This document shows positions 10,651 through 14,375 of a stretch of DNA of 18,596 bases, one piece after another; within the stretch, counting starts at the first letter, position 1; each line of letters opens with the position of its first letter. The DNA is taken from IMG/VR virus record IMGVR_UViG_2703718820_000014. One strand, 5' to 3'. Source of the stretch: a virus. Taxonomy: Duplodnaviria > Heunggongvirae > Uroviricota > Caudoviricetes. The position numbers were made by a program, and so were the translations under genes. The notes under the pieces were generated by a model, which was given only the letters and a program-made list of their open reading frames with translations, was not told the DNA's origin and did no database searches.

Positions 10651-11088
10651 TCAATGCACCACAACAGACTCGCCGGATGACCCGCCGTCGCTGAAATACG
10701 CTTTCCGGTAAACGGCCTGGACAGCATCATCATGTGCATCAATTGCCGTGCTCAACGCTTCCTGCGCCGCCAGTAATGCACGGCGCTCAACAGTGTCAAA
10801 AATACTGAGGTGATAACGCAGTTCACGCGGAAGAACAGTCAGGATAGCCGGAATTAGTGCCTGAATTTTTTCAACAGCATCAGGCGTATCCTTTTCAAGC
10901 CAGCGAAAAATATTTTGTATATTCAATCCAATACCCTCTGTCGTAGAGGTGTCATGCATTGGTGGATAAGTCATTTCAAGCTCAAAATATGCTGTCGCTA
11001 TATCATCAGCGATTTTTTTGCGCCCTACCCTCGGATAAAGCAGCCACGCATTCATCGCCATGCGGATGTGCTCATGCTTGATTTTCAT
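10651..11088 (-). CDS. YdaT-like protein (CII-position regulator)
   Basis: 145-aa ORF whose ATG overlaps the cro-like stop (ATGA). Placed by position and by resemblance to the Rac ydaS-ydaT arrangement. Confidence 0.65.
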   Translation of the reverse strand: MKIKHEHIRMAMNAWLLYPRVGRKKIADDIATAYFELEMTYPPMHDTSTTEGIGLNIQNIFRWLEKDTPDAVEKIQALIPAILTVLPRELRYHLSIFDTVERRALLAAQEALSTAIDAHDDAVQAVYRKAYFSDGGSSGESVVVH

Positions 11089-11345
11089 GAATCAACTCCC
11101 GCCGCTGCTTGTGCGTTAGCCTGATACTCAACAGGTAAACCATCGGTTGGATTAGGGTATTTATCAGGGCGCAATTCATGCGGAGTTACTCCCCAGTCAA
11201 GCGCCTCACATGCTGGTATAACCTCCTCCGCTGGCACTCGTTTTTTAAACCACCCACTTATGGTTTGCGGTGTTTTACCAAGACGACGCCCTAATTCTGA
11301 TTGGCTCATTATTGACAGGATTTTCACTTGAGTACTTTTTTGCAT
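11085..11345 (-). CDS. Cro-like HTH regulator (YdaS/DicC-type)
   Basis: 86 aa with an HTH (SQSELGRRLGKTPQTISGWF) and a YdaS-like LRPDKYP motif. ATG at 11345 with GGAGGG 5 nt upstream; divergent from the repressor gene. Confidence 0.75.
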   Translation of the reverse strand: MQKSTQVKILSIMSQSELGRRLGKTPQTISGWFKKRVPAEEVIPACEALDWGVTPHELRPDKYPNPTDGLPVEYQANAQAAAGVDS

Positions 11346-11374: not shown

Positions 11375-11420
11375 ATGATTACAAATTTAAATTTAAATTT
11401 CAACTTCTATTTGTAATGCC
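11375..11420. promoter_or_regulatory. Divergent promoter/operator region (OR-like)
   Basis: The operator-like motifs ATTACAAATTTAA (11378-11390) and inverted ATTTGTAA (11409-11416) recur at the early-left promoter. For the cro-like gene: TTGAAA, 16-nt spacer, TAATCA on the - strand. Confidence 0.45.
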
Positions 11421-11471
11421 ACTTATCAATTTTTTCTGTAGGATCGCGGAACTAGTTTACGAGGGGTGGTG

Positions 11472-11864
11472 ATGATCTTTGTAAAACGCCTTCAGCAGGT
11501 GTTGCAGGAATTGAATATAAACCAGTCAGAGCTGGGAAGACGTCTTGGTGTAAAACCCCAATCCGTGCAAGGTTGGTTGAAAGGCGTGATGCCAAGAATG
11601 GATAAACTGGAAAAATTAGCAGAGCTCTCACAACATCCCGTCCATTGGTTCTTTATGGAAGAAGAAACTCTCGGCGATAAAATGGCTGTATCCAGTAATG
11701 ACAACCAACCGCAACTTACAGAACAACAACGAAAAATCATATCGCTTTTAGATGAGTTACCTCAAAGCGACGCAGAGCAGATCATTCGTGATATGGAGCA
11801 AAAACGCGATTTCTATAAACGGAAACTTGAAGAGTTACTGCGGCAGAAAAACAAAACTGCCTGA
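11472..11864 (+). CDS. DicA/RacR-like prophage repressor (XRE HTH, no S24 peptidase domain)
   Basis: 130 aa from ATG 11472 with GAGGGG upstream. N-terminal HTH (NQSELGRRLGVKPQSVQGWLKG); C-terminal region resembles DicA as recalled (LLDELPQSDAEQ...EELLRQKNK). Confidence 0.8.
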   Translation: MIFVKRLQQVLQELNINQSELGRRLGVKPQSVQGWLKGVMPRMDKLEKLAELSQHPVHWFFMEEETLGDKMAVSSNDNQPQLTEQQRKIISLLDELPQSDAEQIIRDMEQKRDFYKRKLEELLRQKNKTA

Positions 11865-11894
11865 TGCATTCCTTTTCTGGAACGAGCATCAGGC
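11843..11894 (-). terminator. Candidate terminator hairpin between the convergent repressor and higA-like genes
   Basis: Perfect 9-bp arms gcctgatgc (11859-11867) and gcatcaggc (11886-11894) with a large loop; a T-rich tract follows on the - strand. Confidence 0.3.
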
Positions 11895-11910
11895 AAATGA
11901 CTAGCAGATT

Positions 11911-12270
11911 TTATAATCCAACCAGGCTTTCCAGGGGGATACCAAATTGATTATGAAGACGGCGAATCATTGGTAACGTAAGGCTTCTGGTACCATTCAA
12001 CACCTCATAAACCCGATTTTTTTTCCCAATTGCGGGTTCCAAATCTTTCACAGTCAGCCCCTGCTGTTCCATGCGAAATCTTATAGCTTCAATTGGGGAT
12101 GGTGGCTCAATGGGATAATGTTTTTTTTCATATTCCTCTATTAGCAAACACATCACCTCAAAAAAATCCCCCTCAGGCGTGTCAATTTCGGGCTCATTGT
12201 CGAACATGGGTTCAACAGCACGCAACGCGGCTTCATAATCTTGCTCTGTACGAATAGGTTTGATGTTCAT
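11911..12270 (-). CDS. higA: HigA-like antitoxin (HTH)
   Basis: 119 aa; motifs IKPIRTEQDYEAAL and GLTVKDLEPAIGKKNRVYEVLNGTRSLTLPMIRRL are typical of HigA. It begins 2 nt after the HigB-like stop. Confidence 0.75.
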   Translation of the reverse strand: MNIKPIRTEQDYEAALRAVEPMFDNEPEIDTPEGDFFEVMCLLIEEYEKKHYPIEPPSPIEAIRFRMEQQGLTVKDLEPAIGKKNRVYEVLNGTRSLTLPMIRRLHNQFGIPLESLVGL

Positions 12271-12272
12271 GC

Positions 12273-12575
12273 TTACTCCAGTTCGATGGTATCAGCATCA
12301 ATAGCATCGTATTCCTTGTGGTTTCCGATGAATTTAACAAATACCCATCCTCGCTGATACGCAATTGCAACAATTAAACGGTAATGATTACCTTTTATGT
12401 TGAATACCACGCGCCGGTTTTTCAATATACTGGCCGTTCGGTATTGTGCCTTAATGTCTGCTGGGCTTTTCCAGTCAGCTTTTGCCGCCTCATCCACCCA
12501 TGCCCTTAGCGGTTGTTCTGCATCAGGATTCTCCGCCCAAAAATCCCTGAGTGTTTTAACTGAGATAATCTTCAT
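12273..12575 (-). CDS. higB: HigB-like toxin (RelE/ParE superfamily)
   Basis: 100 aa from ATG 12575; VFNIKGNHYRLIVAIAY...FIGNHKEYD matches the HigB pattern. Toxin-first gene order as in higBA. Confidence 0.7.
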   Translation of the reverse strand: MKIISVKTLRDFWAENPDAEQPLRAWVDEAAKADWKSPADIKAQYRTASILKNRRVVFNIKGNHYRLIVAIAYQRGWVFVKFIGNHKEYDAIDADTIELE

Positions 12576-12581
12576 AACTGT

Positions 12582-12610
12582 ATAGTAGTCCCATTTTGGG
12601 ACTGATGCAA
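12582..12610 (-). promoter_or_regulatory. Candidate higBA-like promoter with embedded palindromic operator
   Basis: On the - strand: TTGCAT (12610-12605), 17-nt spacer containing the perfect palindrome GTCCCAAAATGGGAC (12588-12602), then TACTAT (12587-12582), ending 6 nt before the ATG. Confidence 0.4.
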
Positions 12611-12620
12611 CAGCTCGCAA

Positions 12621-12675
12621 TTACAAATTTAATAATAAACATGTTGACCAGTTAAATTTTAATTTGTAAATTGTA
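12621..12675 (+). promoter_or_regulatory. Candidate early-left (dicB-operon type) promoter with operator motifs
   Basis: TTGACC (12644-12649), 17-nt spacer, TAAATT (12667-12672), flanked by ATTACAAATTTAA (12620-12632) and ATTTGTAA (12662-12669), the same motifs as in the cro/repressor intergenic region. Confidence 0.4.
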
Positions 12676-12849
12676 TCCATAAACCCACCCCGCCCCACAG
12701 AACGCAGGGCAATACTTCGAGTTACCCGGCAGTGGTCAGGGGTTAAGTAGCCAGCCTGAGGCGTATGAACATGACGGCGGGGATTACGTTTAACTATGCA
12801 GCAGGTTTTTTGTTCCGCTACCCCGGCGTTAAGGGGAAATGAGGTCAAC

Positions 12850-13002
12850 ATGGATACGCTCAATCTTGGCAACAACGAATCTCTGGTATGCGGTGTGTTC
12901 CCTAACCAGGACGGCACGTTTACCGCGATGACGTATACCAAAAGTAAAAAGTTTAAAACCGAAGCTGGCGCGCGTCGCTGGTTAGCCAGAAACACTAACT
13001 GA
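12850..13002 (+). CDS. ydfA: YdfA-like small protein (50 aa)
   Basis: ATG at 12850 preceded by GAGGT. MDTLNLGNNESLVCGVFPNQDGTFTAMTYTKSKKFKTEAGARRWL matches the recalled Qin YdfA sequence. Confidence 0.6.
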   Translation: MDTLNLGNNESLVCGVFPNQDGTFTAMTYTKSKKFKTEAGARRWLARNTN

Positions 13003-13520: not shown

Positions 13521-14375
13521 ATGTTGAATGTAGCTATTGAAAACCAGAACGGGTGGAATTATAGTGCACCTGCACCTCATAAAACGGGTGCCGGGCGTGG
13601 AAACCCGATGATGATCAACGCGCATAACCGCGCTCAGGCGGTTTTTTTATGCGTCAAGCACAGCCACATTCAAATTATGGTGGGGCGTGCAGGGCAGCTG
13701 CAAGGCTGGCCGGCTCCGTTGGTCACCGGTATTTCCACCCCTGTACGTCTCACCACCTTTATGGTCGTGGAAAACCTCGGTGGTGAGTTATTTAAACTGA
13801 TCAACGAGGCTGCCATCATGGCTACTACCCTTACCCTTTCTCACCCTGACGTAACCATCGAAAATGGTCGCGCAGTCACCACGTCTGTTGCAGTTGCAGA
13901 GTTCTTCCACAAACTGCATAAAAACGTCATTCAAAAAATTGAAGCTCTGGAATGTTCCGACGAATTCACTGAGCTTAATTTTCAGCCCAGCGAATACACC
14001 GACACAACCGGGCGCAAACTCCCTATGTACCAAATCACCAAAAACGGCTTCGTTTTCCTGGTGATGGGCTTCACCGGCAAAAAAGCCGCTGCATTTAAAG
14101 AAGCCTACATCGCTGAGTTCGATCGCATGGAGAAAGAACTGCGCCAGAATAACGCCCCGTCTCCCGACAAAATGATTCACGGGGACGGACGTACCCTGGT
14201 TATCCGTCTCGACGAACACGGCAATATCAAATTCACTGAAACCGTTCCGGACGGCGCAATGGTCTGCACCCTGGATACCTTCCAGTTTTATCTGGAGAAA
14301 CAAGGCTGGACTCTTGTAAACCGGAGCGCAATTAAAAATATGACTGTGGAGCAATTACTAAAAATTCATTGTTGA
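13521..14375 (+). CDS. Rha-family phage regulatory protein (Rha domain starts near Met at 13818; 99 upstream codons are open in frame)
   Basis: The region MATTLTLSHPDVTIENGRAVTTSVAVAEFFHKLHKNVIQKIEAL...FVFLVMGFTGKKAAAFKEAYIAEFDRME is typical of the Rha N-terminal domain. ATG 13521 has a modest SD; ATG 13818 has GAGG 8 nt upstream. Confidence 0.7.
   Translation: MLNVAIENQNGWNYSAPAPHKTGAGRGNPMMINAHNRAQAVFLCVKHSHIQIMVGRAGQLQGWPAPLVTGISTPVRLTTFMVVENLGGELFKLINEAAIMATTLTLSHPDVTIENGRAVTTSVAVAEFFHKLHKNVIQKIEALECSDEFTELNFQPSEYTDTTGRKLPMYQITKNGFVFLVMGFTGKKAAAFKEAYIAEFDRMEKELRQNNAPSPDKMIHGDGRTLVIRLDEHGNIKFTETVPDGAMVCTLDTFQFYLEKQGWTLVNRSAIKNMTVEQLLKIHC

Follow-up and report, generated by a model that had tools for sequence, protein, structure and literature searches.

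The question raised by this locus is whether a short A/T-rich motif, repeated on both sides of a prophage repressor gene, forms the operators of a lysis-lysogeny switch, and if so which proteins would read it. The locus lies in a stretch of 18,596 nucleotides (nt) from a virus of the Caudoviricetes (record IMGVR_UViG_2703718820_000014; this whole stretch is called the window), which has 100% identity to an Escherichia coli prophage adjoining yccA and is a Qin/CP-933P-type lambdoid prophage. The motif is found between the repressor gene and a divergent ydaS/cro-like gene, the place of a right operator region (OR), and again at an early-left promoter, the place of a left operator region (OL). 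On the sequence evidence we consider it probable, at roughly 0.8, that these motifs are operators of the switch, with the repressor of 130 amino acids (aa) proposed to bind 19-base-pair (bp) sites of the form TTACA(A/G)A, five bases and a weak half.

The 13-mer ATTACAAATTTAA has exact copies at 11378-11390 and 12620-12632 and no others in the window, and the 8-mer ATTTGTAA is present, exact and inverted, at 11409-11416 and 12662-12669; just two other copies of the 8-mer occur on either strand of the window, and these are the reverse strands of both 13-mers. All four positions are those given in the preliminary description, which was made from the sequence alone. It had also placed the first 13-mer over the -10 of the cro-like promoter, and the minus-strand -10 at 11375-11380 does overlap it; the second was said to lie just upstream of the early-left -35, and the TTGACC promoter begins 11 bp past it. 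The inverted 8-mer at 12662-12669 overlaps the -10 of the early-left promoter. Dinucleotide shuffles of the whole window gave at least four matches in 2 of 200 trials, both for the 13-mer pattern and for the 8-mer pattern. A stricter, dinucleotide-preserving control confined the shuffling to the two intergenic stretches, which have 63% and 71% A+T; of 5000 shuffles, 6 gave a word of at least 13 bases common to the stretches and 2 gave an 8-mer in both orientations within both regions, so the recurrence is not an artefact of composition.

The 8- to 13-mers appear to be the strong halves of five sites of about 19 bp, each made up of TTACAAA, five bases and a weak A/T-rich half; three lie in the 126 bp between the repressor (plus strand) and YdaS/Cro-like (minus strand) genes. 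The placement of operators at OR and OL that was originally described is supported, with a larger unit than the 8- to 13-mers then proposed and with a third OR site, at 11423-11441, that had been missed. The sites, the predicted promoters (PR and PL by consensus scan) and the genes they would serve are as follows.

11379-11397, plus strand: OR1, TTACAAA-TTTAA-ATTTAAA, with its strong half TTACAAAT at 11379-11386; it covers the PR spacer and the upstream edge of the -10.
11398-11416, minus strand: OR2, TTACAAA-TAGAA-GTTGAAA, with its strong half at 11409-11416 and its weak half on the PR -35, TTGAAA.
11423-11441, minus strand: OR3, CTACAGA-AAAAA-TTGATAA; its strong half TCTGTAG at 11435-11441 overlaps the putative PRM-like -10, TAGGAT.
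12621-12639, plus strand: distal OL site, TTACAAA-TTTAA-TAATAAA; 23 bp separate the start of its strong half from the PL -35 downstream.
12651-12669, minus strand: proximal OL site, TTACAAA-TTAAA-ATTTAAC; it extends over the PL spacer and onto the -10 at its upstream edge.
11375-11403, minus strand: predicted PR-like promoter of the ydaS/cro-like operon, with -35 TTGAAA at 11403-11398, a 17-bp spacer and a TG-extended -10, AATCAT, at 11380-11375.
12644-12672, plus strand: predicted PL-like (dicBp-like) early-left promoter, with TTGACC at 12644-12649, 17 bp, and TAAATT at 12667-12672.
11439-11444, plus strand: putative PRM-like -10, TAGGAT, with a poor -35 at about 11416-11421, next to OR2.
11472-11864, plus strand: repressor gene, encoding a DicA/Gifsy-type short HTH_3 protein of 130 aa.
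11085-11345, minus strand: ydaS/cro-like gene, encoding 86 aa with Pfam matches to YdaS_toxin and HTH_3.

The proximal OL site agrees with OR1 at 17 of 18 bases (94%); OR1 and OR2 adjoin to give a 40-bp near-palindrome, and OR2 adjoins the weak -35 region of the putative repressor promoter. OR3 was found through relatives, in which it is a compact palindrome (Serratia, Sodalis and a metagenome contig; L019, the Serratia locus, with TTACAGAAAATTTCTGTAG, L021 and L015); its plus-strand reading in the window is TTATCAA-TTTTT-TCTGTAG. Both OL sites flank the PL -35. Read each in its own direction, PR and PL are homologous from -35 through -10 and share one plan, in which one site lies over the spacer and -10 and an inverted site lies upstream, 13 nt (PR) or 23 nt (PL) from the -35. 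The -35 CAA/TTG and the TGnAAT of PR are kept in all relatives, and the PL hexamers are in the same place in all relatives and in the heteroimmune prophages L005 and L006. The PRM-like hexamer is TAGAAT or TAGTAT in relatives, with T-A...T invariant in 10 loci; TAGGAT is the best candidate for the -10 of a putative repressor promoter, and the repressor gene has a conserved Shine-Dalgarno sequence (GAGG) 5-7 nt before its ATG. The PL-like promoter is predicted to drive ydfA (DUF1391), Rha and dicB. Two other definitions of the unit, a 14-bp ATTA-N6-TAAT palindrome and a strictly symmetric 18-mer, failed a by-eye check across the sites and the variants L002, L004 and L007. A perfect 18-bp palindrome, (AAATTT)3 at 11383-11400, occupies the PR spacer and supplies OR1 with its weak half; in relatives the sequence differs (TTAAATTTTAAAT, TTAAAATTTAAAT), an A/T tract being kept but not its exact letters.

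Conservation was assessed at the loci of repressor homologs that a protein search recovered, 47-89% identical, from E. coli, Salmonella, Sodalis, Serratia, Arsenophonus, Phlomobacter and metagenomes. The OR regions of divergent homologs align although their flanks have diverged, and a motif search in related prophages, as had been suggested for the motifs, comes out in their favour: among relatives of five further genera whose repressors have the same recognition helix, no intergenic bases are better conserved. Across 10 loci the OR strong halves are 86-94% conserved (OR1 94%, OR2 86%, OR3 91%) against 59% for unassigned columns, and 16 of 24 strong-half columns are invariant against 6 of 77 elsewhere (p=2e-8). 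For PL, conservation of the strong halves is 88-98% (98% for the proximal site, over 8 loci) against 68% for neighbouring bases, with 11 of 16 columns invariant compared to 11 of 57 elsewhere (p=4e-4); the distal site is kept in L007, L018, L020 and L021. Close variants (96-97% identity) retain TACAAATTTAAT at both loci while flanking bases change. A weight matrix trained just on non-E. coli sites, those of the Salmonella, Sodalis, Serratia, Arsenophonus and metagenome relatives, gives its five highest scores among about 37,000 positions on both strands to exactly the five window sites (OR1 26.9, proximal OL 22.0, distal OL 19.3, OR3 18.0 and OR2 16.5 bits; next score 12.2 bits), a result that is supportive and not fully independent, because the training sites were picked by homology to the window sites. 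A composite OL pattern has 61 matches in 185,579 species genomes; 3 matches in Arsenophonus each adjoin a repressor homolog, and the other 58 are chance matches in unrelated AT-rich taxa that have no repressor homolog, so that the scan informs through its Arsenophonus matches alone.

The motifs also follow the repressor allele. The allele is found in 148 of 5426 complete E. coli genomes, and the same count is obtained for the OL-specific DNA left of about 12682 and for near-identical chromosomal higBA; right of about 12682 lies a PL leader common to thousands of heteroimmune prophages. The sites are thus part of an allele-specific module, as the DNA on the OL side tracks the allele count while the leader beyond it is widely shared. 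The motif is present in all loci with the same recognition helix where PL was recovered. In heteroimmune prophages of the same backbone (the O157:H7 locus L005, and L006), both carrying a LexA-family CI, the PL -35 and -10 positions are kept and the flanking blocks are replaced. L005, from E. coli O157:H7 NE92, encodes a LexA-family CI fragment plus Cro/CI, and its own OR and PL share the word ATCAAAACAT/ATGTTTTGAT (1785-1794 and 2497-2506), the PL copy being upstream of the -35 at about the place of the distal OL site in the window. Neither OR nor PL contains a YTRCARAT motif in L005, in L006, in Rac or in a PaaR-type locus. The proposal that the motifs define a candidate immunity specificity, which was to fall if they were not conserved with the repressor allele, is supported: they accompany the repressor and are missing from heteroimmune loci of the same backbone, of which at least one (L005) carries another word shared by OR and OL.

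The repressor is a protein of about 130 aa with an N-terminal helix-turn-helix (HTH) domain; Pfam finds HTH_3 alone and no peptidase S24 (LexA-like self-cleavage) domain. Similarity to annotated DicA is distant (26% identity over 98% of the query, E=2e-5, tblastn) and identity to the Gifsy repressors is 32%; the term DicA-like, used in the preliminary description, is apt as to size, domain content and distant homology. AlphaFold2 models a five-helix N-terminal HTH domain (predicted local distance difference test score of about 90), a disordered 16-residue linker (66-81) and a long C-terminal helix (100-129); the linker and helix suggest oligomerisation, which would allow cooperative binding or looping between OR and OL, 1.25 kb apart. 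The modelled HTH fold is nearest to 434 Cro (31% identity), P22 c2 and SinR, and also resembles 434 repressor. Proteins of the 434 Cro, P22 c2 and SinR type bind 14-20 bp sites as dimers, with which a 19-bp unit agrees. Solved structures include none closer than a generic HTH domain, and the phage collection searched holds no repressor above 40% identity. The Cro-like protein, of the YdaS family, matches the Xylella prophage Cro 3bd1, and its HTH (SQSELGRRLGKTPQTISGWFKK) is 58% identical over 26 aa to that of the repressor (NQSELGRRLGVKPQSVQGWLKG). Such likeness of the two HTHs is what one would expect of proteins with common sites, and the Cro-like protein probably reads those of the repressor.

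From this arrangement a switch of lambdoid type can be proposed. Repressor bound at OR1 and OR2 would occlude the -10 and -35 of the cro/ydaS promoter, and at the OL sites it would bracket the -35 and cover the -10 of the early-left promoter (ydfA...dicB). In lambda, CI at OR2 activates the repressor promoter, and DicA at Oc acts likewise; here repressor at OR2, centred about 44 bp upstream of the predicted start, would probably help the weak repressor promoter. OR3 would be the site at which the repressor, or Cro first, shuts the repressor promoter off, the Cro-like YdaS protein using the same sites in a different order of preference. Because the repressor is without a self-cleavage domain, induction by an antirepressor is expected.

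Inserted between the repressor gene and OL is a toxin-antitoxin (TA) cassette, higBA, which is controlled from a region of its own and is outside the operator system.

11911-12610, minus strand: higBA cassette with its control region.
11911-12270, minus strand: higA (Pfam HTH_3).
12273-12575, minus strand: higB (Pfam HigB_toxin).
12587-12603: higBA palindrome, AGTCCCA-TTT-TGGGACT, filling the 17-bp spacer of the higBA promoter.
12610-12582, minus strand: predicted weak higBA promoter, TTGCAT at 12610-12605 and TACTAT at 12587-12582; the -10 ends 6 nt before the higB ATG (12575).

No Shine-Dalgarno sequence is present, so that higB may be translated from a leaderless messenger RNA (mRNA); in the plasmid homolog L023, an insertion of about 20 nt includes a Shine-Dalgarno sequence, AAGGA. 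Motif and cassette each occur without the other. Loci from Sodalis, Arsenophonus, Phlomobacter, Serratia and metagenomes do not carry higBA, yet a short way past the repressor gene they have a TTGAC -35 with the inverted pair around it (in Serratia as a variant, with the distal arm inverted and closer to the -35), and plasmid higBA homologs (73-80% nucleotide identity) are without any TTACAAAT-type motif and keep one or two copies of the AGTCCC-N5-GGGAC palindrome. It follows that the TTACAAAT pair is part of the phage switch, whereas higBA, an inserted cassette, has an operator of its own. The PL and higBA promoters are back to back, and the distal OL site between them is some 45-65 bp upstream of the predicted, apparently leaderless higB start; it is unlikely that the repressor also modulates higBA through this site, tying the cassette to lysogeny, or that one oligomer clamps inverted arms 3-4 helical turns apart across the -35.

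Several observations weigh against a set of operators read by the repressor as described above. The sites are A/T-rich and their second halves are weakly symmetric, matching the strong half at 4-5 of 7 bases, which leaves site boundaries and stoichiometry uncertain; the left arm of OR3 in the window (TTATCAA) is degenerate. In two Salmonella loci, L011 and L013, the 3 kb downstream contain no OL that could be recognised. Twenty homologs, some with as little as 47% overall identity, all have the recognition helix VKPQSVQGWL unchanged, so that protein-DNA covariation, sought over that range, was not observable with a single helix throughout; as all relatives share it, allele specificity is judged by contrast with unrelated repressors. 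The conservation of OR1 and the proximal OL site partly overlaps promoter elements (TG-extended -10 and spacer) and could be explained by promoter constraint. An account built on this last point alone, in which PR and PL share sequence merely as homologous promoters, through descent and through constraint on their spacer, extended -10 and UP-like A/T tracts, and no repressor recognition is involved, would draw on their alignment from -35 through -10, on the overlap of OR1 and the proximal OL site with the TG and -10 elements, and on the position of the distal OL arm where an UP element would lie (about -58 to -51). It is very unlikely, as the OR2 strong half, the distal OL site and OR3 are outside the core elements of PR and PL yet hold invariant C and G in an A/T background, the arms are found in both orientations, and in heteroimmune prophages it is these very blocks that are replaced while the hexamers stay. 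The idea that A/T-rich words recurred by chance can be given next to no credence: the A+T content of both regions (63-71%) and the 58 chance matches among 61 for the composite pattern would suit it, but the local-composition shuffles and the conservation at the same positions across genera led to its rejection.

A different geometry for the same proteins, in which inverted pairs of TTACAAAT arms are each clamped by one tetramer through flexible linkers that bridge the -35 region, is unlikely, with these points in its favour. The arms are 32 bp (OR) and 43 bp (OL) apart with TTRYAA cores, about three and four helical turns; strong conservation is confined to the TTACAAAT arms, with weak partner halves; the repressor model has the 16-residue disordered linker and long C-terminal helix; and the analogous PaaR2 is reported to form octamers (PMC8630535). 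However, the Serratia, Sodalis and metagenome relatives have at OR3 a perfect, compact palindrome whose arms are about 12 bp from each other, as is normal for a 434/P22-type HTH dimer, and the inverted distal OL arm of Serratia, nearer to the -35, is hard to fit with a fixed pairwise clamp. Autoregulation of higBA, with HigA or HigBA binding the OL pair at the higB promoter, is suggested by the location of the pair in the intergenic region directly upstream of higB; it is extremely improbable, because the higBA promoter holds a different palindrome (12587-12603) that plasmid homologs retain without TTACAAAT, the pair is present at PL in five loci without higBA, and the same motif is also found at OR, far from higBA. 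HigA as the binder was rejected on this two-way test (motif without higBA, higBA without motif).

The gene order of the prophage is replication genes, ydaT-like (-), ydaS/cro-like (-), repressor (+), higA (-), higB (-), ydfA (+) and a Rha-family gene, followed by dicB, recE-like genes, xis and int. Qin has the same layout (dicC, dicA, dicBp-ydfA...dicB); the right arm, with YdaS and YdaT, is like that of Rac and CP-933P. The remaining features of the region are these.

10651-11088, minus strand: ydaT-like gene, from Pfam; PF15943 and PF06254 are the YdaS-family/YdaT matches at this locus.
11078-11095: operator-like site TTGATTTTCATGAATCAA for YdaT (the CII equivalent), a perfect inverted repeat spanning the ydaS stop and the ydaT start.
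12850-13002, plus strand: DUF1391/ydfA.

The YdaT site is the sole match in the window to TTGATTN6AATCAA with zero mismatches. In CP-933P the operator OM, footprinted for YdaT, has the same motif at the same location (PMC9986795); the window reproduces it, which indicates that the establishment arm of the switch is also present and, by analogy, implies a PRE-like establishment promoter.

Qin of E. coli K-12 has the same order as the window, with a cro-like gene, a short non-cleavable HTH repressor, an early-left promoter and ydfA...dicB. Operators in Qin have been predicted at both the repressor-cro region and dicBp, and DicA bound at Oc, over the dicC -10, activates dicA and represses both dicC and dicBp (PMC3441716, PMC10448788). 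The operator sequence is different, TTGTTAGTCATAACTAACAA for Oc of Qin and TTACA(A/G)A for the half-site of the window, and Oc was not seen in the window OR or OL; the immunity specificity therefore differs from that of Qin. Unlike Qin, the window has higBA between the repressor gene and OL, a YdaS-family cro-like gene followed by ydaT, and two OL sites rather than three. CP-933P of E. coli O157:H7 (PaaR2/YdaS/YdaT; OR, OL, PRE) shares with the window a YdaS-type Cro, YdaT as CII equivalent, the identical TTGATTN6AATCAA junction site, and a motif common to OR and a PL-like promoter beyond a TA module. PaaR2 and YdaS footprint OR in CP-933P, matching OL sites are found at PL beyond the TA module, and some of its operators have one conserved and one degenerate half (PMC8630535). 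The two systems differ in half-site (consensus GTTTAGTAA in CP-933P), in the transcription of the TA genes (paaA2-parE2 with the repressor in CP-933P; higBA on the opposite strand, from its own promoter, in the window) and in the repressor mRNA, which is leaderless in CP-933P and has a conserved Shine-Dalgarno sequence in the window; no similarity of the window repressor to a PaaR-type repressor was detected, the proxy being the paaR-like gene of L022 (a paaR-relB/paaA2-parE type locus) and not PaaR2 itself.

The window also resembles lambda CI/Cro (OR1-3, OL1-3) and 434 in having three sites between divergent repressor and cro genes, over the PR -10, the PR -35 and the PRM -10, a motif that recurs at PL, and similar recognition helices in repressor and Cro; it differs in the repressor without S24, its helical-hairpin C-terminal domain, the asymmetric operators and the two OL sites flanking the -35. 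The ACA(A/G) core of the half-site presumably resembles the ACAA half-site of 434, which is taken as a lead only. The Gifsy-1 and Gifsy-2 repressors (GfoR/GfhR), the 32% identical relatives noted above, are short, of similar length, non-cleavable and controlled by antirepressors. Induction through an antirepressor is accordingly expected of such non-cleavable repressors (PMC10448788). No description of the present repressor allele was found in a literature search; the design of the switch is already known, and the locus is a different, previously undescribed immunity type.

As the design principle is that of textbooks, the value of the locus lies in annotation and in a set of testable sites and not in a new mechanism. 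The sites define a probable operator code, TTACA(A/G)A-N5-weak half with three OR and two OL sites, for an uncharacterised immunity type whose carriers include many Shiga-toxin E. coli of O26, O103, O111 and O45 as well as prophages of Salmonella, Sodalis, Serratia and Arsenophonus. The switch is predicted to control a dicB-containing operon able to block host cell division, and it is the second natural case, after CP-933P, of a TA cassette between the repressor gene and OL. In Salmonella the same slot holds a PaaA2-type antitoxin gene in L013 (3454-3645, S. Javiana) and a PLD-family gene in L011 (3506-4780, S. diarizonae), with repressor homologs of 71-72% identity, and it looks like a hotspot for accessory genes.

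The early-left operon has further features downstream of PL. The untranslated PL leader (12682-12800; …GGCAATACTTCGAGTTACC…TTAAGTAGCCAGCCTGAGGCGTATGAACATGACGGC…) is kept across heteroimmune prophages; thousands of E. coli genomes carry it, K-12 among them, where it follows racR of Rac, and so do the Sodalis and Arsenophonus loci. RNAalifold gave no supported structure for the conserved leader, and a nut-like or Rho-related site is possible. Rfam matches to isrK (13572-13648, plus strand) and the C4 antisense RNA (13673-13760, plus strand) are at the 5' end of and inside the Rha-family open reading frame (13521-14375), and this region may be a P1/Gifsy-style RNA-controlled antirepressor module, relevant to the induction of a non-cleavable repressor. 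The dicBF operon of Qin has the small RNA DicF; in the window dicB is annotated downstream of the Rha gene (14386 onward) and DicF has no Rfam match anywhere. A full-length Rfam match to another small RNA, STnc100 (168 bits), is present on the minus strand at 605-813, near the Q/late-gene side.

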